Shown here: positions 3,264 through 50,939 of the stretch, piece after piece | How positions within the stretch are numbered: the first letter of the stretch is position 1 | How the letters are laid out: every line of letters begins with the position of its first letter | From: Escherichia coli | Lineage (GTDB): Bacteria > Pseudomonadota > Gammaproteobacteria > Enterobacterales > Enterobacteriaceae | Reading direction: 5' to 3' (one strand) | NCBI RefSeq assembly: GCF_001677475.2 | Contig: NZ_CP015229.1 | Length of the DNA stretch: 64,000 nucleotides | Translations under genes and position numbers: made by a program | The notes under the pieces: generated by a model | The model's input: the letters and a program-made list of their open reading frames with translations, nothing else | Told to the model about the DNA's origin: nothing | Database searches by the model: none

Positions 3264-3480
3264 GAATCCTCCCGGCCGGGATAATGTACTGAATAAGATA
3301 AGGAGTGAGCGGAAGTCCCGAAACACAAGGGAAAAAGACAACCACCCGCAAAAAAGAAATACACTCCTCACAGTTGCGCAGGGTGATTACTGTAAGGTAT
3401 TATTCGCAGCGTTAATTAATTGTTCATATTGCTTTTCTTCTTGCCAACCGCTCTTCCCGGGGGCGGCTTTTTTTGCATGT

Positions 3481-3752: not shown

Positions 3753-3917
3753 CTAACTACCTGGCATGCCCTTTTTCACCAAAGGGAAAAGCACCACCAC
3801 AATACCAACCACCAGCACTCCATCCGCCAGCACCGACATGACCCTGCTGGTGAAATCCACCATCACCACCAGAAACAGCAGGAGTGCCACAGCAGCCAGA
3901 CGCAGTTTTAATGTCAC
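3753..3917 (-). CDS. Small hydrophobic protein (~54 aa), start overlapping upstream stop
   Basis: GTG start overlaps the TGA of the TerB-like gene; product VTLKLRLAAVALLLFLVVMVDF...GIVVVLFPLVKKG is strongly hydrophobic; not in ORF track (short). Confidence 0.3.
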   Translation of the reverse strand: MTLKLRLAAVALLLFLVVMVDFTSRVMSVLADGVLVVGIVVVLFPLVKKGMPGS

Positions 3918-4345
3918 AGGTGGTTCTCCAGTCGCAGGCCAAGAACACCGGCGATCTCTTCCAGAACCTTACGCTCTTCCGGCTCAATTTCACCATCCGC
4001 TTCAGCAATGGCCACCGCCACATCCAGCACATCTTCCGCTTCATGCGTATCGTGTTTTACATCTTCAATTTCACGCAACGCCGCTCGACGACCAATTTTA
4101 AAGTTGGTGTCAAGCTGACCTGTGATCGTGGCACTGATGGCATTAATTTCTGACGTAAACGCGGACAACGCAGGCTGGTTACGTAATACCTGTTCGATCT
4201 TCGCTTTCTCTGAAGCCTCACATTCACCATCTGCATAGGCCACCAGATAGGCAGCATTAATAACCGCCTGTGCCAGATCACGTTTCTCAAACTTTTTAAT
4301 TTCCGCTGCCGCTCTGCGGGTTTTCTTTTTGAAAATACCAAACAT
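3914..4345 (-). CDS. TerB-family (tellurite-resistance TerB-like) protein
   Basis: 143-aa ORF with paired ADGE(C/I)E-type motifs (AYADGECEASEKAKIE; AEADGEIEPEERKVLEEIAG) typical of TerB domain. Confidence 0.6.
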   Translation of the reverse strand: MFGIFKKKTRRAAAEIKKFEKRDLAQAVINAAYLVAYADGECEASEKAKIEQVLRNQPALSAFTSEINAISATITGQLDTNFKIGRRAALREIEDVKHDTHEAEDVLDVAVAIAEADGEIEPEERKVLEEIAGVLGLRLENHL

Positions 4346-4514: not shown

Positions 4515-4591
4515 TGGCGCGTTGTACTAGATTCGAACCAGTGACCGATTGCTTAGAAGGCAATTGCTCTGTCCGGCTGAGCTAACAACGC
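4515..4591 (-). tRNA. argO: tRNA-Arg (anticodon UCU)
   Basis: 77-nt cloverleaf on minus strand: acceptor GCGTTGT/ACAACGC, anticodon loop CU-UCU-AA, TTCGAAT T-loop, encoded CCA. Confidence 0.8.
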
Positions 4592-4604
4592 AGTGTACAG
4601 ATAA

Positions 4605-4681
4605 TGGACCGCCATCGAGGACTCGAACCCCGCGCAACCAGCTTCGAAGGCTGGCGCTCTATCCCGATGAGCTAATGGCGG
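4605..4681 (-). tRNA. argN: tRNA-Arg (anticodon UCG)
   Basis: 77-nt cloverleaf on minus strand: anticodon stem CCAGC/GCTGG, loop CU-UCG-AA, TTCGAGT T-loop, encoded CCA; acceptor stem begins with C (unusual). Confidence 0.7.
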
Positions 4682-4688
4682 TAGGTGA

Positions 4689-4764
4689 TGGTGGCCCTTG
4701 CTGGATTTGAACCAGCGACCTGGCGATTATGAGTCGCTCGCTCTCACCACTGAGCTAAAGGGCC
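4689..4764 (-). tRNA. ileZ: tRNA-Ile2 type (anticodon CAU)
   Basis: 76-nt cloverleaf GGCCCTTTAGCTCAGTGG...anticodon loop CU-CAU-AA...GGGCCACCA; CAU anticodon could also be Met, Ile2 inferred from Stx-phage ileZ-argN-argO arrangement. Confidence 0.7.
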
Positions 4765-5271: not shown

Positions 5272-5586
5272 TCACACCACCTCTGGTGGGGATTTTCGAG
5301 CTCTTTTTTTACCACATAGCAATGTATTCAGTCGGCGTTGTTTGGGGCTTCTGCATAAACGACACCAGCTTTGCGGCCTTTTCTTATTCCAACAAATTCT
5401 GAATTCTAATTTTTTCTCAATTTCCTCATCAGAGACAGCTATTTTGCCGCAGAGAGGGCAAGTGTGCTTTTTATCATACTCGGTTTTCAGCACCTCAATT
5501 AACTTACGAATTAATGGCTTGATGTCATAAACGTTCCGCAAATCATAATCATGACCGATTTGAGCATAACTTATCTTCTGCAACAT
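5272..5586 (-). CDS. Hypothetical Cys-rich (zinc-ribbon-like) protein
   Basis: 104-aa ORF with CPLCGK...CWNK...CRLCRS; GGAGG 9 nt upstream of ATG; AT-rich; overlaps upstream gene by 16 nt. Confidence 0.45.
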   Translation of the reverse strand: MLQKISYAQIGHDYDLRNVYDIKPLIRKLIEVLKTEYDKKHTCPLCGKIAVSDEEIEKKLEFRICWNKKRPQSWCRLCRSPKQRRLNTLLCGKKRARKSPPEVV

Positions 5587-5864
5587 CCCTTTTCCTCCAG
5601 GCGTTGAAAGCCTTCTTCTATAATGGCACGAGATGCACGCATTCTGGTGGCAAAAAGAGATATTGACGGTAATGTTTGTGAATCTACATCTTGATGAAAT
5701 GAAACAAAATTAGCCAGCAGAGCTAATTCTGAATGGTTTATTTTTAACCTGTGCTGGTATTTCAAAAGCTCTCTGAGAATAACGAACCAGTCAATGTTTA
5801 AAATATCATCACTCCACAGAGACAAATCGTTTTTCTCTGCTTCCGGGAAATCCTCGATGTCCAT
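5571..5864 (-). CDS. Hypothetical winged-helix-like DNA-binding protein
   Basis: ~97-aa ORF; segment LPSISLFATRMRASRAIIEEGFQRLEEKG resembles winged-helix recognition region of replisome-organizer N-terminal domains; AGGGG upstream of second ATG. Confidence 0.4.
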   Translation of the reverse strand: MDIEDFPEAEKNDLSLWSDDILNIDWFVILRELLKYQHRLKINHSELALLANFVSFHQDVDSQTLPSISLFATRMRASRAIIEEGFQRLEEKGCCRR

Positions 5865-5994
5865 TTTACCCCTGTTCATTGTTGTATCTCTGCGGTTAAA
5901 CGGTAGATAACTCTTACGTCCTTGTCCTATAAAGTAAATAGCATAACGTTCACAAATTTACATACTTCACATAGTGAACGACAAGCGCCTGCTA

Positions 5995-6375
5995 TCACAG
6001 GCGCTGCACATATCGGTCCATTTTCAGTCTGACACCAAGTAACATTAACATCCCTTCAACCACGCCCTCCGCTTTCTGTAATTTTTTACCAATAGTTCCA
6101 TCAGAGCATCCATGCTTACGTGCCAGCGCCATGAACGTCTCCCCCAACACGTAATAATCAACCAGCAAGTCATGCAGATCACTGTTGTTCCTGTTAAGGC
6201 GAGCCATACACCCGCATATAATCATCGCGTCATCGTCACAACACTGTGGACGTGATTTTACTTTTTCGGGGATCAGTCCCTTAAATCCGGCAGCAATGGG
6301 CGACCATGTAACATCCTCATGGTTATTTGCCGCCCATGCCCCCCAGCGCTCAAGAACCTGCCGGATATCACGCAT
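5995..6375 (-). CDS. Late-gene antiterminator Q (QuuD / phage-21 Q family)
   Basis: [24 protein letters not shown]...[19 protein letters not shown] closely resembles recalled QuuD. Confidence 0.8.
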
Positions 6376-6565
6376 CAGTATCTTTACCCCATCCGCGATG
6401 AACCATAAGGACTCCATTGACGACGGCGTGCTTTTTCGCATCTTTATCATCAATGTATTTTCTGACTGTGGCACGATTGCAGTTCAGTATTCTGGCGACT
6501 TCTGTCTGATTTCCCCTGGTGCAGATCAGTAATTCAGGTATCGTTTGAATTTTAGCATTCATCAA
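6368..6565 (-). CDS. Small HTH-like protein
   Basis: 65-aa ORF with [21 protein letters not shown] helix-turn-helix-like segment; overlaps Q start by 8 nt. Confidence 0.35.
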
Positions 6566-13801: not shown

Positions 13802-14572
13802 TCACTTTTCCGATGCAACACGGCGGGAAGAATCAGCAATCTGTCGAACAATATCCCGGTGCTTGTTCAGCTCCCGCAGCGCGGCGCAGACACGCTCCCA
13901 CTTCTGGACATGATTTTTCGCCCGACGCAGTTCGCGGTTTGCCATATGCAGCGATGGTAAAACCAGGTCATCCGCTCGCGTTTCAGTAAACGATGGCAAC
14001 GACTGCACAATGTCCGCCACAGTTTCTGTTTTAATATCTTCCTGTGTTGCAGCTTCCTGTACCGGTAACGCAACACCTGCTGGCTGAGGAAAGGCTTTAC
14101 CATCGGTTTCTGCTACCGATGCAGCTTTCGGCTCTGCTGGTAAATTATCTCCAGGCATGCAGTAGCGAAATTTACCGTTCTGATTTACGCGTGCCAGGCG
14201 TCCCGTTGCGGTTACCACCGCCAGCGTGGAAGCAACCTTGCGAGTGCTGACACCGAACTTACCCGCCAGTTCCTCACATGTTTTAGCCCCCTCCTGAGAG
14301 ATAAACTCAATCATCATGTCAGCGCTAACTTTTGGAGCGACCTCTTCGGTTACCACATCCGGCGCTTCAGGTTGTAGTGCCTGCCCTTCGGTTACCCCGG
14401 ATTCACCTTCGACAGCCAGAAACCAGGTGTGACCCGTTTTATCAACAACGCCATTTTTTTTGAGTTCCCACAGTTCGTTGAGAACTTCTTCACGGCTGAT
14501 ATCAAGCCGCGCCGCCAGTTCAACAGAATTGGCTTTTCCCATCGCTTTCAGTGCATGCAGTACGGTTTCCAT
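13802..14572 (-). CDS. Hypothetical phage protein with winged-helix-like segments (256 aa)
   Basis: ORF directly downstream of DnaC-like gene. Confidence 0.5.
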
Positions 14573-14597
14573 CGAAAATTTACCTCGTCAAAAATTC

Positions 14598-15338
14598 TCA
14601 CATACCCTGACGCCCAACGTTTGATCGCCAGCTCTCCCAGTTAAAACTCACCCAACGACCACCGTTCATGGTCATACGGTCCATCACCCGCTCGCCGAGG
14701 AGTGTGCTCATCGCTGCGTGATTCAGGTTCGTCAGGATTCCGACAGTGCGCAGTGATGCCGTTCTGCGGTCGACGATCTGGTTCAGTATGACCTGCTCGT
14801 TGCGCGTATCCCGCTGCATGCCAATTTCATCCAGGACCAGAAGGTCGACCCCGCAAAGTTCCTGTAAAAATTTCTCACCGGACTTGCCGTTGTCATAGCC
14901 GTCATGCAACACGCTCATGACATCGGACACGGTGACGATAATCACGCTTCTCCCCTTCGCCATCAGCCGGTTGCCAATCGCTGCTGCCAGGTGATTTTTA
15001 CCGGTACCAGGTTTACCGCTGAACACGAAGTTTGTACACCCGGTCATCAATTCATCGGCAATGGATTTCGCCTGGCTCAGAGCATGGCGCTGACCGTCGT
15101 TCTGCACCCGGTAGTTCTCGAATGAGCACTTCCTGTGAAGCGGCTGGATGCCCGCACGGTTCAGGATTTTTTCAACCCGCGCCTGATGATTCTGGCGGTT
15201 AATTTCCTCGCTGCGCTTACGGCCCTCAGCCAGTTGCCATTCCCGCCATTCGTCGGTCGTCCGGAACGGTGCTGCCACGTGCGGTGGTGCCAGACGGCGC
15301 ACCCGTTCAAGAATCCCTCCTGTCGAAATGTTTTTCAT
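14598..15338 (-). CDS. DnaC-like replicative helicase loader (AAA+ ATPase)
   Basis: Walker A FSGKPGTGKNHLAAAIG and Walker B DLLVLDEIG in DnaC/IstB-like context. Confidence 0.8.
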   Translation of the reverse strand: MKNISTGGILERVRRLAPPHVAAPFRTTDEWREWQLAEGRKRSEEINRQNHQARVEKILNRAGIQPLHRKCSFENYRVQNDGQRHALSQAKSIADELMTGCTNFVFSGKPGTGKNHLAAAIGNRLMAKGRSVIIVTVSDVMSVLHDGYDNGKSGEKFLQELCGVDLLVLDEIGMQRDTRNEQVILNQIVDRRTASLRTVGILTNLNHAAMSTLLGERVMDRMTMNGGRWVSFNWESWRSNVGRQGM

Positions 15339-15344
15339 GGCTGA

Positions 15345-16427
15345 TTACCCCCTGAACCCCGGCGGAATTTCGGTGTCCGGTTCAGAAATGTGGTTCACGC
15401 AACGCTGGCTGACTGCGCCAGCCTTCGGCAGCGACCACGGATTTTCGAAATTCCTGTTCGGGCCAAAAAACGTCGATGCCTGCTGAACAAATTCAGTTCC
15501 CGCTTTCCCGGTAGCCTCCAGGTATCTTGCGTAACGCCTCACGCCATCCAGCACGACATCCGGTGACACCCCTTCGCGTAATCTGGCCCTCCAGGCATTG
15601 AACGCGGATTTCTTCGGGTTTGACCCTGCCCGATGCGGATATTCACGCCAGACCCGTTCGAACACGTCAGGATAATCAACTCGTCCCGCAGACGGTCCCG
15701 GCATCGCCCGGGTTAACCCAATCGGCTTCCCGCTCATCGCGGAATCGGCTTCAGGCTGCTGCGGTTGGTGTTGTTGCTCCGGTTCGACGAGCAGCACCTG
15801 CTGCACACAACGCCCGGAATCTGCTTCCGGTGTCATGCCAGCTGGTCCTGGACGTTCAGTCAGAACGGGACAAGAATCCACCAGTGGGTCCGTGGCGATT
15901 TTTTCGCCATGGACCAGAAGGGTTTTATCTCTTTCCTGTTCCTGTTCCTGTTCCTGTTCTTGGCTTGAAAGGGGCTCTGAAGGGGCTTCAATTTTCCGAC
16001 ATGATTCACGTCTGACATCCAGGTGGAAATCATCCTTATATCTATCATAAAAGGATGATAAAAAAGGATTTTCCAGCAACGCGGAATATTCATTTCTTAC
16101 CCCAGCACAACGGTTATCGCCTGGTTTCAGCGCTTCACCAACCTGCCATGCTGCCATTTCATGCACCCATACAACCTCAGAATCATGGTCATAGCTGCAA
16201 AAACCAGCCTCGCAAGCCATTTGAAGCCCCTTAGAAGCCCCTTCAGGATCAAGTCCGGTTTCGTGAGCAATGTACAAAACAGGCAGGTAATAAAGGCCCA
16301 GCATATTGGAATGAGGCGAGGTCATCATATACAACGCCACTACCATACATTCCGGACCAGACTTCCTTAGTTTTCGCCCTGTATCGCCTAACCAGAACTG
16401 AGGTGAAATTGTTGCGTAATTACGCAT
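15345..16427 (-). CDS. Replication initiator (lambda O-like replisome organizer)
   Basis: 360-aa ORF between cII and DnaC-like gene; internal repeats and an AT-rich tract inside the coding region resemble an O-gene-embedded origin. Confidence 0.55.
   Translation of the reverse strand: MRNYATISPQFWLGDTGRKLRKSGPECMVVALYMMTSPHSNMLGLYYLPVLYIAHETGLDPEGASKGLQMACEAGFCSYDHDSEVVWVHEMAAWQVGEALKPGDNRCAGVRNEYSALLENPFLSSFYDRYKDDFHLDVRRESCRKIEAPSEPLSSQEQEQEQEQERDKTLLVHGEKIATDPLVDSCPVLTERPGPAGMTPEADSGRCVQQVLLVEPEQQHQPQQPEADSAMSGKPIGLTRAMPGPSAGRVDYPDVFERVWREYPHRAGSNPKKSAFNAWRARLREGVSPDVVLDGVRRYARYLEATGKAGTEFVQQASTFFGPNRNFENPWSLPKAGAVSQRCVNHISEPDTEIPPGFRG
15935..15958. repeat. Hexanucleotide tandem repeat (CCTGTT)x4 inside replication gene
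   Basis: Perfect four-unit repeat; encodes (EQ)n on minus strand. Confidence 0.9.
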
Positions 16428-16460
16428 AGTCCCCTCGCATACAAGATTTACTCCATACCG

Positions 16461-16610
16461 CAGACGGTCCCGGTATCTCCCGGGTTAACCCAATCGGCTT
16501 CAGGCTGCTGCGGTTGGTGTGACTGCACATTGGTGTGACTGCACATCTTCACAGACGGTCCCGGTATCTCCGGGTTAACCCAATCGGCTTCAGGCTGCTG
16601 CGGTTGGTGT
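16461..16610. repeat. Two direct copies of a ~60-bp repeat, third copy at 15689-15775 inside the replication gene; includes tandem 15-bp repeat
   Basis: cagacggtcccggtatctc(c)cgggttaacccaatcggcttcaggctgctgcggttggtgt at 16461-16520 and 16552-16610; ggtgtgactgcacat duplicated at 16516-16545. Confidence 0.85.
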
Positions 16611-16680
16611 TGTTGCTGGCGAAATTCTTCCAGATGTGGCAGAATTATTACCGTGTATTGCTCCATGCCCTGCCTGAATA

Positions 16681-16977
16681 TCAGATATTCATCAGGATTT
16701 GCTCAGAACGTCCGGCCCCAACCGGACGTTTTTTATTTGCATGAACGTTAATGGCATGCTGGAAAGCCCGGCTGATCGGACTGATATCAGATGCCATCTG
16801 GAACGCGCATAAAATCGCCGCGATGTATCGCCAGTCGGTACGACTGACCTTCGATTCATGGCAGCCAATCATCTTCGCCAGTCCCCTTTGCGTCAGAGCT
16901 GACAGGTTGATAAGTAAATCCGTTTCAGCGCGATCGATATCGCGCTGCGACAGTTTGCTGTAACTTGTTTGTGACAT
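16681..16977 (-). CDS. cII: CII-like transcriptional activator
   Basis: C-terminus KKRPVGAGRSEQILMNI matches lambda CII C-terminus (KKRPAATERSEQIQMEF); position between cro and replication gene. Confidence 0.75.
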   Translation of the reverse strand: MSQTSYSKLSQRDIDRAETDLLINLSALTQRGLAKMIGCHESKVSRTDWRYIAAILCAFQMASDISPISRAFQHAINVHANKKRPVGAGRSEQILMNI

Positions 16978-17120
16978 TTCTTATGATTCCAAATAGTGAA
17001 TAGTTAGTTGAAAGGTATGCGTGGAAACGCATATGGCCTTAATTGGTCAGATATCTTGGGCCTCGCTTTTCAGCGACGTAGGACGAATGTCCATTGTGAA
17101 AAGAGCAGTGTTAATTGAGC

Positions 17121-17360
17121 TTATCGTTGACGATCAGGATTCGCTACATTGCGTAACCATTCGGCGGTAAATTTGCCATCAGATGCATTGGCGAGAATTT
17201 CCGAATAGTTGGTTTTCATCGTGTATTCGGTGCGAGGTAACGCTCCGTTTTTAACCCACTTATGAATTGCAACATTTGACAACCCGCATAAACGGGCAGC
17301 GACTGTTTGACCACCAACAGCTTTTACTGCGAATTGTATCGGATTCATACTGCTATCCAT
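17121..17360 (-). CDS. Cro-like HTH repressor
   Basis: 79-aa ORF with HTH-like QTVAARLCGLSNVAIHKWVK; divergent from cI. Confidence 0.6.
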   Translation of the reverse strand: MDSSMNPIQFAVKAVGGQTVAARLCGLSNVAIHKWVKNGALPRTEYTMKTNYSEILANASDGKFTAEWLRNVANPDRQR

Positions 17361-17440
17361 TAATTTAGTTAACTTCGAGTTAATGTTAACTATTAGCTGA
17401 CAGTTATGTCAACTATGTTTGATAATTAACGTATGGTTAA
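17361..17440. promoter_or_regulatory. Divergent cro/cI promoter-operator region (OR)
   Basis: Two perfect TTAAC-N5-GTTAA palindromes (17369-17383, 17426-17440); rc TTGACA at 17407-17412 for cro; CTGACA-18bp-GATAAT ending 7 nt before cI ATG. Confidence 0.5.
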
Positions 17441-18203
17441 AAAAGATGAACTAAAAGAAGCGTTCTCAAAGAGACTACTACAGGCATTATTAGATGCAGG
17501 TGTGGGCGGACGCGGTCAGGCTAAGCGGATTCAGAATGCAATGAAACTGCGAGGCATTGATATCTCTGAACCGGGGATCTGGAAATGGCTTAATTCTGCA
17601 TCAATTCCAGAAAAAACAAGTATTTTGGCACTTAGTGACTGGCTTTCCGTGAGGCCGGAGTGGTTGGAGTATGGCAGTAACGAGCCATCCGTAAAACAGC
17701 GACCTTCAATTCCAAACGAATCAGAATGGGGTTCCCTTGAAACTTGGGACAGAAATACACCACTACGAGATGATGAAGTTGAGGTGCCATATCTGAAAGA
17801 CATTGAGTTTGCATGCGGTGACGGAAGAGTTCATTGCGAAGATCATAATGGTTTTAAATTACGCTTCTCAAAAGCAACCCTGCGCCGTGTCGGAGCTAAC
17901 AGTGATGGTTCTGGTGTGCTTTGTTTTCCGGCTACTGGTGATAGCATGGAGCCCGTGATACCAGATGGAACAACAATCGCAGTAGACACAAACAACAAAC
18001 GTATTGTTGACGGCAAACTCTACGCCATCGCACAGCCTGGTGTCGGTGATGAAAAACTGAAGCGTATAAAACTATTGTACAGACGCCCCGGTGGAAAACT
18101 AATCATACGCAGTTATAACAGTGAAGAGTACCCTGACGAAGAAGCAGATACTCAAAGCGTGGAGATTATCGGAAAAGTTTTCTGGTATTCAGTTCTGCTT
18201 TAG
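17433..18203 (+). CDS. cI: CI-type prophage repressor (HTH N-terminus, S24 LexA-like C-terminus)
   Basis: 256-aa ORF with GDSMEP active-site motif and K-containing LexA-like C-terminal domain. Confidence 0.85.
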   Translation: MVKKDELKEAFSKRLLQALLDAGVGGRGQAKRIQNAMKLRGIDISEPGIWKWLNSASIPEKTSILALSDWLSVRPEWLEYGSNEPSVKQRPSIPNESEWGSLETWDRNTPLRDDEVEVPYLKDIEFACGDGRVHCEDHNGFKLRFSKATLRRVGANSDGSGVLCFPATGDSMEPVIPDGTTIAVDTNNKRIVDGKLYAIAQPGVGDEKLKRIKLLYRRPGGKLIIRSYNSEEYPDEEADTQSVEIIGKVFWYSVLL

Positions 18204-18213
18204 CCCCTCTCCC

Positions 18214-18237
18214 CCCGGCCTCAGAGCCGGGTTTTTT
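18214..18237 (+). terminator. Intrinsic terminator after cI
   Basis: Hairpin CCCGGC-ctcaga-GCCGGG followed by TTTTTT. Confidence 0.55.
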
Positions 18238-18366
18238 ATTAACCCAGCTAGCCAAAACTCATCTATCCTAGCTTCTATACCCCTTCATACTTGATAACCG
18301 TCGCTCACCGAACAAGCAATAATAATTAACTAAAAATCAAAAACATAGAATTTCCCCACAATAATT

Positions 18367-18409
18367 TTAACTTTTGGTTATTGACTAATGCTAACCAACA
18401 GTTAATAAT
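18367..18409 (+). promoter_or_regulatory. Candidate pL with operator half-sites (OL)
   Basis: TTGACT(18381-18386)-17bp-AATAAT(18404-18409); operator-like TTAAC-N5-GTTAT (18367-18381) and TAAC-N5-GTTA (18392-18404). Confidence 0.4.
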
Positions 18410-18445
18410 CATTTCACCAACAGGTCACCGATAACAACGCGGCCC

Positions 18446-18473
18446 CAATTGGAAAGCTCTTTAAACAACGTCG
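18446..18473 (+). promoter_or_regulatory. Candidate nutL (boxA + boxB hairpin)
   Basis: GCTCTTTAA (boxA-like) followed 5 nt later by GTCGA-acac-TCGAC hairpin, between putative pL and N-like gene. Confidence 0.35.
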
Positions 18474-18599
18474 AACACTCGACTACGTGGCTGCAAAGCC
18501 AGATCGCCCAACCGCATAAGCTGTCGGGTGCAATGCCGAAGCAATCATCTCAGGGGAGGCTTCGAGATTGCATCGCCAAAGTTTATTCGGGAGAAATCT

Positions 18600-18872
18600 A
18601 TGTCCAGAAAAACAGAATTTAAAGGCACCGCAGCTTCCCGCCGCAGAGCACGCAGGGCCGAGCTTCAGGGTCTGGAGGCATCAAGCGCTGATAAACTGCA
18701 CCGCCCCACACCTTCACGGGTGTACTTACAGTGCAAACGCAAAGCCGCAATGCGAGCTGAAGTAGTCACGATAACGACATTAACCAGAAAATATGAAGGC
18801 TCTACTTGTCTTCCAAACACTGCACTTTACGCAGCTGGCTATCGCAAATCAGGAACAATAACAGCGAGGTGA
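18600..18872 (+). CDS. N-like antiterminator with arginine-rich motif
   Basis: 90-aa ORF; N-terminal TAASRRRARRAELQGLE resembles lambda N ARM (QTRRRERRAEKQAQW); first gene right of cI. Confidence 0.55.
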   Translation: MSRKTEFKGTAASRRRARRAELQGLEASSADKLHRPTPSRVYLQCKRKAAMRAEVVTITTLTRKYEGSTCLPNTALYAAGYRKSGTITAR

Positions 18873-18875
18873 TTG

Positions 18876-19589
18876 ATGACCACGCCTTCAGTTTTGCCGC
18901 AAAAATTATGGCGTCCGCTTGCAGAGATTAAAAACTTCGTTGAAAAAATGCCTGATGGTGTTCGCCTTACGGAGGTTACAAAAAAAGTTAAGACGTTTGC
19001 CGAACTGTCAGGAAAAGAGAGAAACCAGCTCATCGATTTTATCGATAAACGGGAAAGCATCATTGTATTTAAGGTCAGAAAAGAAGGTTCTGGTAACGGA
19101 GTAACCTTTTTCCGCCACAAAAAATATGGATATCCCAAACGGGAAGGAAACGTCACAATCATTAAGGACCTTCAATCAAAATTATGTACCAAATGCGGGC
19201 AGACAAAATCAGTCAATGATTTTTATTCAGATGCCAGCAAGCGTGACGGGAGAGCCATTTATTGCAAGAAGTGCGAATCTGCAATGAAACGCTCACGCAG
19301 AGAATGCAACAAATTAATTCTGCAACAACAGGAACCTGAAATGAATAACCTCAAAGCAGTATCACCTTCACCAGAAACACTCAGAAAACAGGCTGAAGAA
19401 TTGCTGAAAGCCGCCGAAATTGCGGAGAAAAAACGCCAGGAAGATGATGTATTCAACAAAAAACTTGCGCCCTTAAAACTTGAAATTCTTCAGGCCGCCG
19501 GAAAAATGCAGCTTAAACTGGACGAATTCATCGACTGTATGGATGAAATGAATAAAGCAGTTCAGAAGCTTAAAGAGCTGACCGCCTGA
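18876..19589 (+). CDS. Hypothetical protein with Cys4 zinc-ribbon and C-terminal coiled coil (237 aa)
   Basis: CTKCGQ...CKKCES; GAGGTG upstream of ATG; follows N stop directly. Confidence 0.5.
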   Translation: MTTPSVLPQKLWRPLAEIKNFVEKMPDGVRLTEVTKKVKTFAELSGKERNQLIDFIDKRESIIVFKVRKEGSGNGVTFFRHKKYGYPKREGNVTIIKDLQSKLCTKCGQTKSVNDFYSDASKRDGRAIYCKKCESAMKRSRRECNKLILQQQEPEMNNLKAVSPSPETLRKQAEELLKAAEIAEKKRQEDDVFNKKLAPLKLEILQAAGKMQLKLDEFIDCMDEMNKAVQKLKELTA

Positions 19590-19620
19590 TATTAATAAAT
19601 TGCAACTACCGGAGTTAACT

Positions 19621-19977
19621 ATGAACGAAACAGAACTGAAGCACATTATCGCCCTGCTTCTGGAAGATGCCAGACAGGTTTATCGACTTAGCCCAAACTC
19701 CGCAACGCAGGAACGCATCCGGATGGCAGAAAAAGCGCTGAAACAGGAGAGTGAAAATAACATATCCGAAGTTAGCGCGAATGGTGAAAATGAAGCAATA
19801 GAAATAAACAGCAATATCAGCGACGGCGTAATAGCTTCATCCCACAAGACAATTCTCATGGGCGCACGACTTCTGGAGGTGATTACGAGTGAGCTTGAAA
19901 AGAACGGCATCAAGCCCACCCCTTGTTATTTAGAGTGTGTGTTAAATGTTATTGCTTACTCGATGTTCCGTCGGTGA
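19621..19977 (+). CDS. Hypothetical protein (~118 aa)
   Basis: ORF; start taken at MNETELKH. Confidence 0.45.
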   Translation: MNETELKHIIALLLEDARQVYRLSPNSATQERIRMAEKALKQESENNISEVSANGENEAIEINSNISDGVIASSHKTILMGARLLEVITSELEKNGIKPTPCYLECVLNVIAYSMFRR

Positions 19978-20090
19978 CAGATGAAAGTTTTCGATCAAGG
20001 AATGTTTCAAGTGCATCGTAAATAATGGAAATCGCCCCAGACGCCTGAGTAACACCCCCGCAGCAACATCCATGTATCAATATCCTCTTT

Positions 20091-20132
20091 GGCGGACATC
20101 GGTTTGCCGATTACTGATGTCCGCCCTTTTTT
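20091..20132 (+). terminator. Intrinsic terminator inside accessory block
   Basis: Hairpin GGCGGACATC-15nt-GATGTCCGCC followed by CTTTTTT. Confidence 0.5.
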
Positions 20133-20290
20133 AAAGTGAATTTTATGATGCGGTGAATGCGGCTATGCGCACGCGGAACAGTTAAACCGACAGGATGTCA
20201 CGGAAAATCATCATCCCCTGCTCCGGCGTTAATTGTTAACTGGTTAACGTCACCTGGAGGCACCAGGCACCGCATCAACAAAGTTCATTT

Positions 20291-20530
20291 GTGAAAATGG
20301 AGATAATTATGATTGCTCATCACTTCGGAACTGATGAAATACCACGTCAGTGCGTGACACCTGGCGATTATGTTCTTCATGAAGGCCGCACATATATCGC
20401 TTCAGCAAACAATATTGAAAAGAGAAAGCTCTATATTCGTAGCCTGACTACAAAAACATGCATTACCAACTGCATGATTAAAGTATTCATCGGGCGCGAT
20501 GGCTTACCCGTAAAAGCAGAGTCGTTGTGA
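20291..20530 (+). CDS. Hypothetical protein (79 aa)
   Basis: ORF downstream of internal terminator; start uncertain. Confidence 0.35.
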
Positions 20531-20615
20531 CGAGCAATTAAAATACACCTTCCATATCTGTAACAGACAAGCCGAAATAAAAACCGCATTAATTATCAAT
20601 CACGGAAAAATCAAA

Positions 20616-21002
20616 ATGAAAGAACTTGCGCAAAATGAAATATTTTCCGAAACCAGTCCTGATGCAATAAATGAACTCAAAGAAATTGCAGAACGCATCA
20701 GTAAAATATGCAAAGAATACCAAATCGACTTTGTATTTTCTTTTTCAGTACTTACAGAGGTTGGAAATAACGAATATAAGGACAGTCGTTTTGTTTTATG
20801 TGGGTTAAATGGCAAAACACCAAGCCCATATATTCATGCTGCACGTGAAGTCGTCAGAAGCAACATTGGAGCACAACAAATCCATACACTGGCGCAGGCT
20901 CTTGAGTTTGCAAGAGAAAATTCTGAGTGCGACTGCCCTGAATGCCAGCACGAAAAGGAAAAAACAACTCACAAAACAGCAAACCAGGCAACCTTCCACT
21001 GA
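20616..21002 (+). CDS. Hypothetical protein with C-terminal Cys cluster (128 aa)
   Basis: ORF ending SECDCPECQHEKE. Confidence 0.45.
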   Translation: MKELAQNEIFSETSPDAINELKEIAERISKICKEYQIDFVFSFSVLTEVGNNEYKDSRFVLCGLNGKTPSPYIHAAREVVRSNIGAQQIHTLAQALEFARENSECDCPECQHEKEKTTHKTANQATFH

Positions 21003-21109
21003 AATAAAAATCCGGCAGCGCAGGCTACCGGATTTCTCCCTGCGTCACCGTATTCGGAGAAATCAGACAAAGGGCCGCTAATTCTAATCCAGCCAGAGGT
21101 TTAAATACA

Positions 21110-23179
21110 ATGAGCGCTGATAAACAGACTTTTGCACTACACTGCGAAGCAAAAAACGATAAAGTCAGAAAACGCCTTAGCATCAAAGGCGGTTTTTTCT
21201 GGACCGAGGCCAGAAAACTTTCTGTCGCAGTTTCCCGCTGCATTGCAGCCATGGACGATGCAGGCTACGACGAGGATGATTTCAAAAAACCCGTTCGCGT
21301 AAATTTCCCCGTCGTGAATGACCTTCCACCGGAAGGCGTGTTTGATACTGAATTCTGCAACCGCTATGAAAAAGGCGGTAACGATGGCATCACCATGATG
21401 GCTATCCCCTTCGATGACAACATCAACGGTGAAGATGCTACAACTGCTGGCGATGACAACGATAACCTGGACGGAACTATTCCGGATGATGTGGAGAAAA
21501 GCGAATCCCCGGACAGCGACGATGACTGTTCTGAGTGTGAAATTCCCGTCGCCACTCTGAGCCTTACTCATCGCTTCCTTCACCTCTTCTTCTTCAGCAA
21601 GGATGAAGATGGAAAATACCGGCATCACGCCACACCAGAACAACGTAATCAGGTGATTCGTCTGGAGATGGACACAGAAGACAGTTACCTTCAGAGCCTG
21701 CTTACTGCTGTGCGTTCACATCCAGAACTGGATAAGCTGACGAATTATCATCTGGGAAGACTGGCACAATCCGTTGGAAAGGCATTCTCTCACTCAACAA
21801 CCCGTCATATCAGCCCGGCCGAATTCGACAAGTTCATCTCCACCTGGATGAAAACAGACTATGTGGATCAGGGATTGCTGGCAAAAGAATGGCAGAAAGG
21901 AAATTGTGTTACAGGCATCACCCGTACGCCTTCCGGTGCTAACGCTGGCGGCGGAAATCTTACCGATCGTGGCGAAGGCTTTACCCACAATCAGGCATCA
22001 CTGGCGCGAGACATTGCCACTGGCGTTCTGGCCCGTTCAATGGATGTGGATATTTATAACCTGCACCCTGCACATGCAAAACGCGTTGAAGAAATCGTTG
22101 CAGAGAATAAACCGCCCTTTTCTGTTTTCCGTGACAAATTCATCGCCATGCCCGGTGGGCTGGATTATTCCCGCGCCATTGTGGTGGCTTCCGTGAAAGA
22201 AGCACCAATCGGCATTGAGGCTATCCCGGCGCGCGTGACTGAATATCTCAACAAAGTGTTGACCGAAACCGATCACGCTAACCCGGATCCGGAAATCGTA
22301 GAAATTGCCTGCGGTCGCTCATCAGCCCCGATGCCGCAGCGCGGAACAGCAGAAGAGATACATGACGATGAAGAAAAGCAGCAAACATCGGACGCAATGT
22401 CTAATGAACAGGCAGCGCCTGAATCAGTGGAAGAAATTCCAGTTAAACATAATGCGGACACGCAATCACTGGAAAATGTCTCATCTGTAGAAACGAAATA
22501 CCAGGAACTGAGAGCAGAACTCCATGAAGCCAGGAAAAACATTTCGCCCAAAAATCCTGTCGATGCAGACAAATTGCTGGCTGCCTCTCGTGGGGAGTTC
22601 GTTGAAGGTATCAGCGACCCAACCGACCCGAAGTGGGTGAAGGGGATCCAGACTCGCGACACTGAGGACCAGAATCAATCCAAAGTGGAACAAAATGAGC
22701 CAGAAGCAGAACAAAACAGCCCGGATACGCAACAAAACGGACCGGAAGAGCAACAGCCAGGGCCAGTAATGCAACAGGAAGTGGAAAAGGTTTGCACCGC
22801 ATGCGGTCAGAACGGTGGCGGGCATTGCCCTGACTGTGGTCCAGTAATGGGAGATGAAACTTACGCTGAAACTTTTGGAGAAAATGACACCGCTGCTGGA
22901 GATGACCAGGCACAAATGAAGAATGAATACATTCAGAAAAATGCTGTTGATACAACTCAGGAACACGATTCGGTTGTTCACATCGATCCAGATAGTGATG
23001 CTTCTGACAATAATGATGATTCAGAGCAAGCAGATTTCGACTGGAAAAGGCAACTCGTGCTTGCAGCCGTCTATGGTTTGTGCGCAAACCCTGCATGCGT
23101 CGCAACAGCGCCAGCAATCCCTGATATCGCAATCATGATTGCCAACAGGCTTGAAAATTTTGGAGGTGATAAATCATGA
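21110..23179 (+). CDS. Large highly acidic protein of unknown function (689 aa) with C-terminal Cys4 motif
   Basis: Multiple D/E-rich tracts ([50 protein letters not shown]), [16 protein letters not shown]; stop overlaps gam start. Confidence 0.6.
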
Positions 23180-23472
23180 ATGCCTGGCTTATCCCCGATC
23201 GCATTGAAGAGCAGTCATGGGCACGACACTACCGGCAAATTGCCCGTGAGGAAAACGAGACTGAACTGGCGGACGACCTGGAAAAAGGTCTGCCCCAGCA
23301 CCTGTTTGAATCGCTGTGCATCGATAATCTGCAACGTCATGGAGCCAGCAAAAAAGCCATTGCCCGTGCATTTGATGACGATGTCGATTTTCAGGAACGC
23401 ATGGCAGAACACATCCGGTACATGGTTGAAACCATTGCCCGCCACCAGATTTATATTGATTCAGAGGTATAA
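23176..23472 (+). CDS. gam: Gam (RecBCD inhibitor)
   Basis: 98-aa product near-identical to recalled lambda Gam C-terminal 98 aa (EAQSWARHY...[12 protein letters not shown]...MVETIA). Confidence 0.9.
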
Positions 23473-23477
23473 ACCAG

Positions 23478-24263
23478 ATGAGTACAGCTCTCGCAACGCT
23501 GGCAGGGAAGCTGGCTGAACGTGTCGGCATGGATTCTGTCGACCCACAGGAACTGATCACCACTCTTCGCCAGACTGCATTTAAAGGTGATGCCAGCGAT
23601 GCGCAGTTCATCGCATTGCTGATCGTTGCCAACCAGTACGGCCTTAATCCATGGACGAAAGAAATTTACGCCTTCCCTGATAAGCAGAACGGCATCGTTC
23701 CGGTGGTGGGCGTTGATGGCTGGTCCCGCATTATCAACGAAAACCAGCAGTTTGATGGCATGGACTTTGAGCAGGACGATGAATCCTGTACATGTCGGAT
23801 TTACCGCAAAGACCGTAATCATCCGATCTGTGTTACCGAATGGATGGATGAATGCCGCCGCGCACCATTCAAAACCCGCGAAGGCAGAGAAATCACGGGG
23901 CCCTGGCAGTCGCATCCCAAACGGATGTTACGGCATAAAGCCATGATTCAGTGTGCCCGTCTGGCCTTCGGATTTGCTGGTATCTATGACAAGGATGAAG
24001 CCGAACGCATTGTCGAAAATACCGCATATACTACAGAACGTCAGCCGGAACGCGACATCACCCCGGTTAACGAAGAGACCATGTCGGAAATTAACGCCCT
24101 TCTTACTTCCATGGAAAAAACGTGGGATGACGACCTCTTGCCGCTCTGTTCCCAGATATTTCGCCGCTACATTCGAGCGTCGTCAGAACTGTCCCAGGCC
24201 GAAGCAGAGAAGGTTCTTGGATTCCTGAAACAGAAAGCCACGGAGCAGAAGGTGGCAGCATGA
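23478..24263 (+). CDS. bet: Bet (Red-beta single-strand annealing protein)
   Basis: 261-aa product near-identical to recalled lambda Bet ([72 protein letters not shown]...). Confidence 0.92.
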
Positions 24264-24940
24264 CACCAGAAATTATCCTACAACGTACCGGGATCGACGT
24301 GAGAGGTGTCGAGCAGGGAGATTATGCATGGCAAAAATTACGGCTCGGGGTCATCACAGCTTCAGAAGTTCACAACGTGATAGCCAAACCCCGCTCCGGA
24401 AAGAAATGGCCTGACATGAAAATGTCCTACTTCCACACCCTGCTGGCTGAGGTCTGCACGGGTGTGGTCCCGGAAGTTAACGCCAAAGCCCTGGCATGGG
24501 GAAAACAGTACGAGAACGACGCCAGAGCCCTGTTTGAGTTTACTTCCGGCGTGAATGTTACTGAATCCCCGATCATCTATCGCGACGAAAGTATGCGTAC
24601 CGCCTGCTCTCCGGATGGATTATGCAGTGACGGCAACGGCCTTGAGCTGAAATGTCCGTTTACCTCCCGGGATTTCATGAAATTCCGGCTCGGTGGTTTC
24701 GAGGCCATAAAATCAGCTTACATGGCCCAGGTGCAATTCAGCATGTGGGTGACTCGAAAAGATGCCTGGTACTTCGCCAACTATGACCCGCGCATGAAGC
24801 GTGAAGGCCTGCATTATGTCGTGGTCGAGCGGGATGAAAAATACATGGCTGGTTTTGACGAGATGGTGCCGGAGTTCATCGAAAAAATGGACGAAGCACT
24901 GGCTGAAATTAGTTTTGTATTTGGGGAGCAATGGCGATAG
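24260..24940 (+). CDS. exo: Exo (lambda 5'-3' exonuclease)
   Basis: 226-aa product near-identical to recalled lambda Exo (...[33 protein letters not shown]...). Confidence 0.92.
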
Positions 24941-24978
24941 CCGTAGCAACGAGGTGCAAATGATATGACAGTTAAGGA

Positions 24979-25239
24979 ATGCTACCGGTGTTCGTCCTGA
25001 TCCAGCGCGGGCAATCTTTCGTCGATGCCAACAACTATCCGGTGGAAATCTGCAAGGTAACTCTTACTCAGGTGATCTACCGAAGACTCGACGGCAGAAC
25101 CCGAGCCACTTCAATTGGTGCATTTAATGAAGAATTTGAGCGAGTCGACCACAACGAACTACACATGATTAAAGCGGAAATTGAGAAGGAAATGCATATT
25201 GCCAGCCTTCGAAAAATGCGACGTACATCAATCAACTGA
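24979..25239 (+). CDS. Hypothetical small protein
   Basis: ORF between exo and xis; start codon uncertain. Confidence 0.3.
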   Translation: MLPVFVLIQRGQSFVDANNYPVEICKVTLTQVIYRRLDGRTRATSIGAFNEEFERVDHNELHMIKAEIEKEMHIASLRKMRRTSIN

Positions 25240-25645: not shown

Positions 25646-26664
25646 ACAGACTGGGGGATATGCCAGATGTCACTTTCGAAGAAGCCTGCCTGAGATGGCT
25701 TGAGGAAAAAGCCGACAAGAAATCCATCGATTCCGATAAATCCAGAATCGCATTCTGGATTGAGCATTTCGAGGGAATAAGGATTAAGGATATATCGGAG
25801 GCAATGATCTACTCAGTTATCAGCAAAGCGTATAACCGAAAAACAAAGGAGAGATGGAAGTTGCAGGTGGAGGCTGCATTAAGAAAAGGGAAAGAACCAC
25901 CAGCCTATATACCTAAATCGGTGAGCACGCAAACAAAAGCAACACACCTGGCAATGATCAAGGCTATTCTGCGCGCCGCAGAGCGAGACTGGAAATGGCT
26001 TGAAAAAGCACCTGTAATCAAAATACCTGCCGTAAAAAACAAACGCGTGAGATGGCTGGAAAAAGAAGAAGCCAGGAGACTCATTGATGCATGTTCTGAC
26101 CCCCTGAAATCTGTAGTTAAATTTGCATTGGCAACTGGCCTGAGGAGATCAAACATTATTAATCTGGAGTGGCAACAAATCGATATGCAGCGACGTGTTG
26201 CCTGGGTAAACCCTGAAGACAGTAAGTCAAACCGCGCTATTGGGGTCGCACTGAATGACACTGCCTGCAAGGTGTTGCGTGATCAAATAGGCAAACATCA
26301 CCGCTGGGTGTTTGTTTATACCACTGCTGCCAGAAGGCCTGACGGGACAATGACACCAAGCATCAGAAAGATGCGCCTGGACTATAACACATCGTGGTTA
26401 ACAGCATGTCGTCGGGCAGGAATTGAAAATTTCCGTTTTCATGACCTCCGCCATACCTGGGCCAGTTGGTTAATTCAGTCAGGTGTACCGCTGTCAGTAC
26501 TTCAGGAAATGGGCGGCTGGGAGTCTATCGAAATGGTGCGTAGGTACGCACACCTTGCACCTAATCATTTGACAGAGCACGCGAGGAAAATTGACGACAT
26601 ATTGGGTGACGATGTCCCAAATTTGTCCCACTCTGAGGTTTTTGAGGATGCAAAGAAAGCATAA
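25501..26664 (+). CDS. int: Tyrosine integrase
   Basis: 387-aa ORF with HDLRHTWAS...RRYAHL catalytic region; last phage gene before host junction. Confidence 0.85.
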
Positions 26665-26701
26665 GCAATTGAATTAGAATGAGTTAAGCTCACGCTTTCA
26701 A

Positions 26702-27256
26702 GTGGTGAGCAACAACTTTAAAGATCTTGGCCCGGAAGTCAGTTTCCGCCGTATTTATGAATATGCTGGCGGCGACTGGCAGGAAGATAATGGCGTCTGG
26801 CACCAGAACGTGTTCGCTTATTATCTCTCCATCTCCTGTAACCATTGCGATGACCCCGCATGTACAAAAGTCTGCCCCAGCGGCGCAATGCATAAGCGTG
26901 AAGATGGCTTTGTGGTGGTTGATGAAGATGTTTGTATCGGCTGCCGCTACTGCCACATGGCTTGTCCGTACGGCGCGCCACAGTACAATGCTGAAAAAGG
27001 GCACATGACGAAGTGCGATGGTTGTTATTCGCGCGTCGCCGAGGGGAAACAACCCATATGTGTCGAATCCTGCCCGCTGCGTGCACTTGAGTTCGGTCCA
27101 ATTGAAGAGCTGCGCCAGAAGCACGGCACTCTGGCTGCCGTTGCGCCACTGCCGCGCGCGCATTTCACAAAACCCAATATCGTTATCAAACCTAACGCCA
27201 ACAGCCGCCCGACCGGCGATACCACTGGTTATCTGGCTAACCCGGAGGAAGTGTAA
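26702..27256 (+). pseudogene. ynfG: ynfG 3' fragment (DmsB-like Fe-S subunit), 5'-truncated at prophage junction
   Basis: In-frame C-terminal ~180 aa of a DmsB-type ferredoxin (CNHCDDPAC..., CIGCRYCHMACP) with no upstream N-terminal Cys cluster; frame opens just after int. Confidence 0.6.
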
Positions 27257-27257: not shown

Positions 27258-28112
27258 ATGGGAAATGGATGGCATGAATGGCCACTGGTTATCTTTACCG
27301 TATTGGGTCAATGCGTAGTAGGCGCGCTGATTGTTAGCGGAATTGGCTGGTTCGCCGCCAATAATGACGCAGACCGTCAGCGTATTGTCCGTGGCATGTT
27401 TTTCCTCTGGCTGTTGATGGGCATCGGGTTTATTGCCTCTATCATGCACCTGGGATCCCCACTGCGGGCGTTTAACTCGCTGAATCGAATCGGAGCTTCT
27501 GGTCTGAGTAACGAGATTGCTGCCGGTTCCATATTTTTTGCCGTTGGCGGATTATGGTGGCTGGTGGCAGTCATCGGTAAAATGCCGCAAGCGTTGGGGA
27601 AACTCTGGTTACTTGTCAGCATGGCGCTCGGCGTCATTTTCGTCTGGATGATGACCTGCGTGTATCAAATCGACACAGTGCCAACCTGGCATAACGGTTA
27701 CACTACGCTGGCTTTCTTCCTGACAGTATTGTTGAGCGGTCCAATACTTGCTGCCACAATTCTGCGGGCAGCCCGCGTTACATTTAATACCACACCATTT
27801 GCCATCATTAGCGTTCTGGCGCTGATCGCTTGTGCCGGGGTGATTGTGCTGCAAGGTTTGTCTCTGGCGTCTATTCACTCATCCGTACAACAAGCCAGCG
27901 CACTGGTACCAGATTATGCCTCCTTACAGGTCTGGCGTGTGGTATTGTTATGCGCAGGTCTAGGATGCTGGCTTTGTCCGCTCATTCGTCGCCGTGAACC
28001 TCACGTTGCCGGACTTGTTCTGGGGCTAATCCTCATACTTGGCGGTGAGATGATCGGGCGTGTGCTCTTTTATGGCCTGCACATGACGGTAGGAATGGCT
28101 ATTGCAGGTTAA
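27258..28112 (+). CDS. ynfH: DMSO-reductase-type membrane anchor subunit YnfH
   Basis: 284-aa polytopic membrane ORF starting MGNGWHEWPLVIF, start abuts ynfG stop. Confidence 0.85.
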   Translation: MGNGWHEWPLVIFTVLGQCVVGALIVSGIGWFAANNDADRQRIVRGMFFLWLLMGIGFIASIMHLGSPLRAFNSLNRIGASGLSNEIAAGSIFFAVGGLWWLVAVIGKMPQALGKLWLLVSMALGVIFVWMMTCVYQIDTVPTWHNGYTTLAFFLTVLLSGPILAATILRAARVTFNTTPFAIISVLALIACAGVIVLQGLSLASIHSSVQQASALVPDYASLQVWRVVLLCAGLGCWLCPLIRRREPHVAGLVLGLILILGGEMIGRVLFYGLHMTVGMAIAG

Positions 28113-28154
28113 CAAATTGGTGCGGGGCAACCCGCACATTTCAGGATGTTAGGA

Positions 28155-28769
28155 ATGACCCATTTTTCACAGCAAGATAATTTTTCTGTCGCGGCGCGCG
28201 TGTTGGGTGCGCTGTTTTATTACGCTCCAGAGAGTGCTGAAGCCGCACCTCTGGTTGTGGTACTCACCAGTGACGGCTGGGAAACTCAGTGGCCGCTACC
28301 AGAAGCGTCATTAGCGCCGCTGGTGACAGCTTTTCAGGCACAGAGTGAAGAGACTCACGCCCAGGCCTGGCAGCGTTTGTTTGTCGGCCCGTGGGCACTG
28401 CCGTCTCCGCCGTGGGGATCGGTCTGGCTGGATCGCGAATCTGTGCTGTTTGGCGATTCAACATTGGCACTTCGTCAGTGGATGCGCGAGAAAGGCATTC
28501 AGTTTGAAATGAAGCAAAACGAACCGGAAGATCATTTTGGTTCACTGCTGTTGATGGCTGCGTGGTTGGCGGAGAATGGTCGCCAGACAGAATGCGAAGA
28601 ATTGCTGGCATGGCACCTTTTTCCGTGGTCAACACGATTTCTTGACGTTTTTATCGAAAAAGCAGAACACCCTTTCTACCGTGCACTGGGTGAACTGGCT
28701 CGCTTAACGCTGGCGCAATGGCAATCACAACTGTTGATTCCTGTCGCGGTTAAACCACTCTTTCGATAG
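28155..28769 (+). CDS. dmsD: Tat proofreading chaperone DmsD
   Basis: 204-aa ORF MTHFSQQDNFSVAARVLGALFYYAPES; conserved position after ynfH. Confidence 0.85.
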   Translation: MTHFSQQDNFSVAARVLGALFYYAPESAEAAPLVVVLTSDGWETQWPLPEASLAPLVTAFQAQSEETHAQAWQRLFVGPWALPSPPWGSVWLDRESVLFGDSTLALRQWMREKGIQFEMKQNEPEDHFGSLLLMAAWLAENGRQTECEELLAWHLFPWSTRFLDVFIEKAEHPFYRALGELARLTLAQWQSQLLIPVAVKPLFR

Positions 28770-50236: not shown

Positions 50237-50417
50237 GGCCTGCTCCTCACCTGATTAATTTTTTCTTTCTGTTTTGCTTTCGCTAAGCAACTTTTAGCTC
50301 ACTCATTATTTACCATTTGATAACAAATGTTTGGTCTTTCGTGCCATGTAAAAAAACCGCCCCGAATGAACTGCACCCCAAAAGTTGGACACTCAACGAA
50401 GTAAGGTGCAGTTTTTT

Positions 50418-50939
50418 ATGAGTAAATATTCTCTCAGCTTTAAGCTTGAGGTTGTGCAGCACTATCTTTCCGGCATGGAAGGGCAGAAAGCGACTGCAAA
50501 GCGTTTTGGTATCGATCACAGTGCCGTTCGTAAGTGGACTGCTGCCTGGAAGCTTCATGGCGAAGCCGGACTTACCACCCGGCATTTCGCCTATTCTCCC
50601 GTCTTTAAAGAGTCCGTTATCCTGCATATGCGTGAGCACCGGTTGTCTGTTCGCGAAGTCTGTGCAAAATTCACTATTCCGGCTTTCTCCACGGTCCTTC
50701 TGTGGGAACGCCTGTATGATGAAGGGGGATTAGAAGCCCTCACTGACAGCCGACGCGGGAGAAAAACGATGCCAGAACGCCCTGAAAATAACCCGGCACC
50801 TTCTTTACAGGCTCCTCTTAACCATGATGAACGAGAGGAACTTGAACAACTGCGTGTTGAAGTGGCTTATCTAAAAAAGTTGCAGGCCTTGCTCAGGGAA
50901 AAAAGCACGTCAAAACGCGGGATAAAACGCAGATCGTGA
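50418..50939 (+). CDS. IS3-family transposase OrfA (HTH)
   Basis: 173-aa ORF MSKYSLSFKLEVVQHY...; contains A_AAA_AAG slippery heptamer at 50873-50879. Confidence 0.8.
   Translation: MSKYSLSFKLEVVQHYLSGMEGQKATAKRFGIDHSAVRKWTAAWKLHGEAGLTTRHFAYSPVFKESVILHMREHRLSVREVCAKFTIPAFSTVLLWERLYDEGGLEALTDSRRGRKTMPERPENNPAPSLQAPLNHDEREELEQLRVEVAYLKKLQALLREKSTSKRGIKRRS

Follow-up and report, generated by a model that had tools for sequence, protein, structure and literature searches.

An attachment junction inside ynfG of Escherichia coli, very probably the integrase-proximal end of a lambdoid prophage of the phiPOC-J13/Shigella 75/02 integration type

In the 64,000-nucleotide stretch of Escherichia coli DNA analysed here (contig NZ_CP015229.1; hereafter the window), a phage integrase gene is followed by a ynfG reading frame that lacks its beginning, and then by ynfH and dmsD. 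This raises two questions: at which base does phage DNA give way to bacterial DNA, and what does the insertion mean for ynfG and for the genes behind it? Very probably, a lambdoid prophage of the phiPOC-J13/Shigella 75/02 integration type ends here, and the region represents its attachment junction on the integrase side, the one called attL for lambda. A tyrosine recombinase gene stands beside the junction, an excisionase gene is adjacent to int, and a short core sequence has swapped flanks. The features on which this reading rests are collected in Table 1.

Table 1. Features of the visible prophage, of the ynfG junction and of the genes downstream
Feature	Positions	Strand	Remarks
Lambdoid prophage, visible part	1-26716	.	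window begins inside the prophage
Holin	414-629	-	one bound of the stx-position interval
nanS-p	1323-3371	-	between Q and holin
TerB-like 'tellurite resistance' moron	3914-4345	-	PHROG 632, E=2e-68
tRNA cluster Arg(tct), Arg(tcg), Met(cat)	4515-4764	-	position usual for Stx-type phages
Split gene, PHROG 34160	5272-5879	-	just downstream of Q; family without known function
Antiterminator Q	5995-6474	-	other bound of the stx-position interval
Excisionase Xis, 123 aa	25274-25645	+	145-nt overlap with the start of int
Tyrosine integrase (int), 387 aa	25501-26664	+	intact; stop TAA at 26662-64
Candidate arm-type repeat TGTCCCAAATTTGTCCCA	26613-26630	+	int-proximal arm; repeat search of attP contig (family D1)
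Candidate arm-type integrase site ATGCAAAG	26648-26655	+	69 nt before core; k-mer analysis of reconstructed attP (repeat families D2, D10)
Phage-derived arm	26665-26716	+	int stop to core; identical to intact attP, unlike ynfG; includes half-site GAGCAACAAC
Common core/overlap TTTAAAG, 7 bp	26717-26723	+	ynfG nt 79-85, codons 27-29
ynfG 3' fragment, bacterial DNA, pseudogene	26717-27256	+	ynfG nt 79-618, codons 27-205 + stop
ynfH (membrane anchor subunit)	27258-28112	+	intact, 855 nt, no internal stops; 6 aa differences vs K-12-like
sigma54 ChIP motif TAGGAATGGCTATTGCA, 17 nt	28090-28106	+	exact match; last ynfH codons, 50 bp upstream of dmsD
dmsD (Tat proofreading chaperone)	28155-28769	+	intact, no stops; NF008632 E=9e-104, full length; 3 aa differences vs K-12-like

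The integrase matches the Pfam Phage_integrase domain (PF00589, E=5e-45) over model positions 1-171 of 172, as well as PHROG integrase families, and it carries the motifs TGLRRS (212), HDLRH (314), GGWES (338) and RRYAH (347), which make up the R...HxxR...(H/W)...Y signature of tyrosine recombinases. The gene is 99.4-99.6% identical at the nucleotide level to those of the Shigella phages phiPOC-J13 and 75/02 Stx and of Escherichia phage PhiR5_2, and it ends 52 nt before the core. Xis matches the PHROG 2907 excisionase profile (E=2e-43) over positions 2-117 of 117; its score for the TIGR01764 excisionase domain, 28.4 bits, lies just under the cut-off of 28.8 bits. At the site of this ORF in related genomes, RefSeq records only a 66-nt 'helix-turn-helix, missing C-terminus' pseudogene (L001:1975-2040; L007:26775-26840). 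As the 123-aa ORF matches the excisionase profile over its full length, xis seems to be under-annotated in this phage group. From the window edge to the junction, the prophage runs through lysis genes, nanS-p, the TerB-like moron, tRNAs, Q, nin, replication, immunity, recE/gam/bet/exo, xis and int, an order that parallels that of the annotated prophages of 2009C-3133 and O104:H4 C227-11. Two recombination modules adjoin each other within it, one a 689-aa RecE-family exonuclease and the other a lambda-type gam-bet-exo (together 21110-24940, plus strand).

The crossover site emerged from a four-way alignment of the window junction, intact ynfG, the far junction of the related lysogen 2009C-3133 and an uninterrupted attP from IMG/VR, in which attP and the far junction were taken from related genomes and not from the window's own genome. 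TTTAAAG is the sole block common to attP, attB and both junctions. Intact ynfG (attB) reads ...GTGCAAAGAT-TTTAAAG-ATCTTGGCC..., the far junction of 2009C-3133 reads ...GTGCAAAGAT-TTTAAAG-TTGGTTACG..., and the window junction reads ...GAGCAACAAC-TTTAAAG-ATCTTGGCC.... The attP predicted from the three-way alignment was GAGCAACAAC-TTTAAAG-TTGGTTACG, and an exact search of IMG/VR with it returned one contig, in which the integrase gene is followed by the predicted attP, uninterrupted, and then by far-arm sequence. In the GenBank records of phiPOC-J13, 75/02 and PhiR5_2, the sequence begins only at the prophage boundary, and attP across the core is not shown there. The original prediction had placed a prophage/chromosome junction here with its att core in the 5' region of ynfG, and the position of the core at ynfG nt 79-85 bears this out. 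In an alignment with an uninterrupted K-12-like locus, identity to intact ynfG begins exactly at 26717 (ynfG nt 79, codon F27), and no full-length ynfG runs across the junction. Similarly, when 5,426 complete E. coli genomes were searched with megablast, the alignment of uninterrupted genomes did not begin before query position 418 (window position 26717). The ynfG frame does resume after the integrase stop, as had been proposed, but not immediately: 52 nt of non-ynfG sequence come first.

One element of that prediction has to be given up, namely that the residues KDLGPEVSF... are phage-derived. Right after TTTAAAG, attP and the far junction each depart from ynfG (phage TTGGTTACG; ynfG ATCTTGGCC), and thus the sequence from 26717 onwards is bacterial, the seven shared bases aside; the phage-derived part lies upstream of 26717 only, where it encodes VVSNN after the TAG at 26675. 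A phage that carried its own ynfG-like segment, so that KDLGPEVSF... was phage-encoded and the crossover lay deeper in ynfG, could account for one observation, which is that the phage arm upstream of the core resembles ynfG at 11 of 18 bases (binomial p ~0.001). However, such a phage would need ATCTTGGCCCGG after TTTAAAG in its attP, and the uninterrupted attP contradicts this. Downstream of the core, moreover, attP agrees with attB at just 5 of 18 bases (p=0.48), and divergence from native ynfG over the 540 nt that follow 26717 is of the usual between-strain kind (4 synonymous differences). We find a captured segment hardly credible, and similarity between integrase half-sites is the better explanation of the upstream resemblance.

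Read towards the core, the candidate core-type half-sites are B (GTGCAAAGAT), B' (GGGCCAAGAT), C (GAGCAACAAC) and C' (ACGTAACCAA). All four flanks share GCAAnnA, a pattern that suggests imperfect inverted half-sites around the 7-bp overlap. The candidate arm-type repeat of the int-proximal arm has a related copy, TGTCTCACTTTTGTCCCA, in the other attP arm, and a further candidate, TGTC(C/T)CA..TTTGTCCCA, occurs once in each arm. The shorter candidate site ATGCAAAG occurs three times across both arms, at -69, +80 and +100 relative to the core. Going by their sequence, these half-sites and arm repeats may be where the integrase binds. The arrangement resembles that of lambda Int/Xis, in which attP (POP') recombines with attB (BOB'): in both systems an excisionase gene adjoins that of a tyrosine recombinase, int lies beside attP and the overlap is 7 bp long, and they share inverted core-type half-sites, repeats in both arms and simple attL/attR, the sites here being putative ones. 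Unlike lambda, the phage inserts into an attB that lies within a coding sequence, and the gene is not reconstituted by phage DNA; furthermore, its integrase falls, in contrast to that of lambda, in a P22/epsilon34-like sequence group (76-81% nt identity).

We propose that the phage integrase recombined attP (...GAGCAACAAC-TTTAAAG-TTGGTTACG...) with attB in ynfG (...GTGCAAAGAT-TTTAAAG-ATCTTGGCC...), with strand exchange inside the 7-bp overlap between imperfect inverted core-type half-sites of consensus GCAAnnA. Integration of this kind splits ynfG: a 540-nt 3' piece is left next to int, an 85-nt 5' piece would stay with ynfE-ynfF at the far prophage end, and the intact ynfH and dmsD genes come to lie downstream of int instead of downstream of the FNR-dependent ynfE promoter. 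As int and xis are both intact, precise restoration of ynfG on excision is predicted.

What does the junction leave of YnfG? The remaining codons carry no amino-acid changes relative to K-12-like ynfG. The first 26 are missing, and with them C14, C17, C20 and C24 (Cys group I), in agreement with the predicted absence of the N-terminal Cys cluster; the NCBIfam DmsB model TIGR02951 accordingly matches the fragment only from profile position 25 of 161. A four-cluster Fe-S subunit has four Cys groups, with 16 Cys for four [4Fe-4S] clusters, and 12 of the 16 Cys are left here. An in-frame TAG at 26675-77 precedes the frame, which then stays open from 26678 to 27256. Its only possible starts are GTG codons at 26702 (the first) and 26705, with no Shine-Dalgarno sequence upstream, and the fragment does not amount to a full reading frame equipped with a start codon and a ribosome-binding site. 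Immediately before the core, the phage-derived codons give VVSNN where native ynfG has LACKD. An N-terminus restored by the phage was considered and rejected: read on the phage side, the frame encodes no Cys and is closed by a stop 14 codons upstream. As the phage supplies no replacement N-terminus, any product of the fragment would be without C14, C17, C20 and C24 and unable to assemble four [4Fe-4S] clusters. The loss of YnfG function is a well-supported conclusion from the sequence, and PGAP annotates the corresponding fragments in 2009C-3133 and O104:H4 C227-11 as 'incomplete; missing N-terminus' pseudogenes. On the far side, the ynfG fragment of related lysogens ends after nine phage-encoded codons, as MTTQ...CKDFKVGYVSFKIN and a stop. 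Two antisense ORFs (26690-27163 and 26739-27149, minus strand) lie inside conserved ynfG sequence and were treated as mechanical.

The insertion site itself is not new: ynfG is an already known integration site, routinely annotated as a pseudogene, and an ordinary feature. Phage phiPOC-J13 sits in S1742 of Shigella flexneri and enters the homologue ynfG on lysogenization of MG1655 (Gray et al., 2014; PMC4193171), and its site-specific integration and excision have been shown experimentally in MG1655 and 2457T (PMC4193171). The 75/02 phage also uses the ynfG/S1742 site (PMC5447701), the ynfG site has been reported for an O113:H4 crow isolate (PMC10562709), and it is listed in the STECode preprint. 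The resemblance to ynfG is not fortuitous: the int-ynfG junction is present in 88 of the 5,426 complete E. coli genomes (~1.6%), including O104:H4 C227-11, and the standard far junction in 81; no match to the phage arm plus core was found in GTDB species-representative genomes. The junction of 2009C-3133, which belongs to a Stx1a prophage, matches that of the window exactly across 60 phage-side nucleotides, through the core and into ynfG for 23 nt, and that of C227-11 (2011 outbreak lineage, stx-negative prophage) is the same apart from one phage-side substitution. Both of these genomes share with the window the order int, ynfG pseudogene, ynfH, dmsD, clcB. Early-region identity to the window is 97.9% for 2009C-3133 and 94.8% for O104:H4; immunity and cargo genes differ.

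The published target of phiPOC-J13 and 75/02 Stx, both Stx1a-converting, is that of the window, and their early regions are 97.6-97.8% identical to it (14187-25000); over the window's first 25 kb, however, they cover only ~43% at high identity. A Stx-converting prophage carries stxA and stxB between antiterminator Q and the lysis cassette. In the window this interval, from Q to the holin on the minus strand, is fully visible, and no stx ORFs were found in it. Thus, despite the match of its int and early region to Stx1a phages, the prophage is without stx, and it carries there instead, unlike phiPOC-J13 and 75/02, the tRNAs, the TerB-like moron and a split gene. The latter comprises an ORF (5571-5879) that matches positions 1-94 of PHROG 34160 and an overlapping ORF (5272-5586) that matches positions 95-197; as the two match successive halves of one family, we take them to be one gene broken by a frameshift.

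The far end of the prophage must be approached through relatives. No ynfG 5' end and no second copy of the core region were found in the 64-kb window, so the far junction cannot be read from it. The best matches among the 5,426 complete genomes reach 98.6% at the prophage end and 98.5-98.6% over 24.7 kb of chromosome; as none reaches 99%, related lysogens were used. The chromosomal flank from 27300 to 52000 is likewise at most 98.5-98.6% identical to any of these genomes; the host may come from a lineage that they do not represent, such as a Shigella or an atypical E. coli. This flank contains an IS3-family insertion (50385-51775, plus strand; orfA 50385-50939, orfB 50936-51775; NF033516, 345 bits) between ORFs taken as fumC and fumA. 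The IS3 stretch is absent from most of the E. coli compared (94% query cover, in two pieces), and the two genomes with full cover annotate an IS3-like ISEcB1 transposase.

In 2009C-3133, the int junction belongs to a ~61-kb prophage whose far end adjoins an 84-nt '4Fe-4S binding protein, missing C-terminus' pseudogene lying directly after ynfF. The original prediction that the 5' part of ynfG, with ynfE and ynfF, lies beyond the far prophage end therefore agrees with related lysogens, where the 5' 85 nt and ynfE/ynfF are found at the far end of a ~61-kb prophage. By analogy, the far junction in the present genome would be expected to read ynfF-ynfG(nt 1-85) followed by TTGGTTACGTATCG..., and it is likely to lie beyond the far prophage end.

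The closest relative of the window's prophage, 2014C-3307 (NZ_CP027368.1, 98.6%), differs from this simple layout. Its int junction lies near 974 kb on the minus strand and its far junction (L005:6227-6310) near 1.627 Mb on the plus strand, ~650 kb away and in opposite orientation, which implies a large chromosomal inversion with one endpoint in the ynfG prophage. It could be, then, that the att site in the window is genuine and that what remains of the prophage has been rearranged or partly deleted, with the ynfG 5' part and ynfEF not simply at its far end and precise excision lost. The split junctions of 2014C-3307 (0.97 Mb, minus; 1.63 Mb, plus) fit such a history, as do the smaller count of standard far junctions (only 81, against 88 int junctions) and the frameshift that splits the gene between Q and the tRNAs in the window. 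However, the visible 26.7 kb of prophage is collinear with intact relatives, int and xis are intact, and in most lysogens the two junctions are ~61 kb apart. We judge a remnant of this kind unlikely.

The question of what happens to ynfH and dmsD is less easily settled. Both genes are intact, and dmsD is followed by its usual neighbours clcB, bioD and mlc. The only documented promoter of ynfEFGH-dmsD is directly activated by FNR and lies upstream of ynfE (PMC3688515); thus the genes are physically separated from it, and the prediction that they are cut off from their native promoter is upheld. A polar effect on ynfH-dmsD is plausible from this arrangement. Such an effect would extend past the disrupted complex, as dmsD, the last gene of the operon, serves another enzyme: DmsD is required for the maturation of DmsABC (PMC12096835). 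The other intragenic sites of lambdoid and Stx phages, wrbA, ompW, sbcB and yecE, likewise involve site-specific insertion into a dispensable gene, and ynfG appears in one list with such sites (PMC10562709; STECode preprint), but ynfG, unlike these, lies in mid-operon, ahead of a last gene that acts on DmsABC (PMC12096835).

It may equally be asked whether the insertion has much effect on these two genes at all. Under this alternative, read-through from int or an internal promoter would supply ynfH and dmsD, only YnfG would be lost, and DmsB/DmsC might substitute for it. A terminator scan of the stretch from int to ynfH detected no intrinsic terminator, which leaves room for phage transcription to read through, and the RNA fold of 26655-26760 is no more stable than that of shuffled sequence (z = -0.29). 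The Shine-Dalgarno sequence of ynfH (GGAGGA, 27244-49) is retained, the sigma54 motif ahead of dmsD is conserved, and both genes are intact in the window, 2009C-3133 and O104:H4. Ynf and Dms subunits are said to be partly interchangeable, in a finding attributed to Lubitz and Weiner from 2003, which would soften the loss of YnfG. On the other hand, the sole documented operon promoter is the one at ynfE, and little transcription of int is expected while the lysogen is repressed. Furthermore, sigma70-like sites are not enriched in the region (6 found, against 4.3 +/- 1.8 in shuffled sequence) and lend no support to a new promoter. The sigma54 motif may possibly act as an independent dmsD promoter, going by its exact match; the corresponding K-12 intragenic ChIP site, IS21, which lies 50 bp upstream of dmsD, scored low in ChIP and has no demonstrated transcript (PMC4591121). 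A GC-rich hairpin, GTGCGGGGCAACCCGCAC, is also present between ynfH and dmsD (stretch 28090-28137). We found no paper in the literature that tests respiration in ynfG lysogens. Weighing these points, we regard a near-neutral insertion as a serious contender whose chances fall somewhat short of even, and the attachment junction itself stands whichever way ynfH and dmsD are expressed.

The prophage might further act as a reversible switch (active lysogeny), in which integration abolishes YnfEFGH electron transfer and excision rebuilds the ynfEFGH-dmsD operon. Here int and xis are intact, the 7-bp core is precise, the ynfG fragment has not decayed and a terminator is absent, all of which is compatible with such a switch; we nevertheless hold it to be very improbable. 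If it were true, ynfH-dmsD and, through DmsD, the maturation of DmsABC would be under read-through from the int region instead of FNR, and anaerobic DMSO/selenate respiration would be tied to the state of the prophage, for example in O104:H4 and in Stx1a-positive Shigella.

In summary, the finding has little significance beyond annotation, as ynfG is an established site for Stx1a phages and their stx-negative relatives. This work adds a definition of the site at the level of single bases (core TTTAAAG at ynfG nt 79-85, GCAAnnA half-sites and candidate arm repeats), its confirmation by an uninterrupted attP, and an estimate of its prevalence in complete E. coli genomes (~1.6%). Furthermore, as DmsD is needed for the maturation of DmsABC, altered anaerobic S-oxide/selenate respiration is conceivable in every lysogen of this group, including the outbreak lineages.
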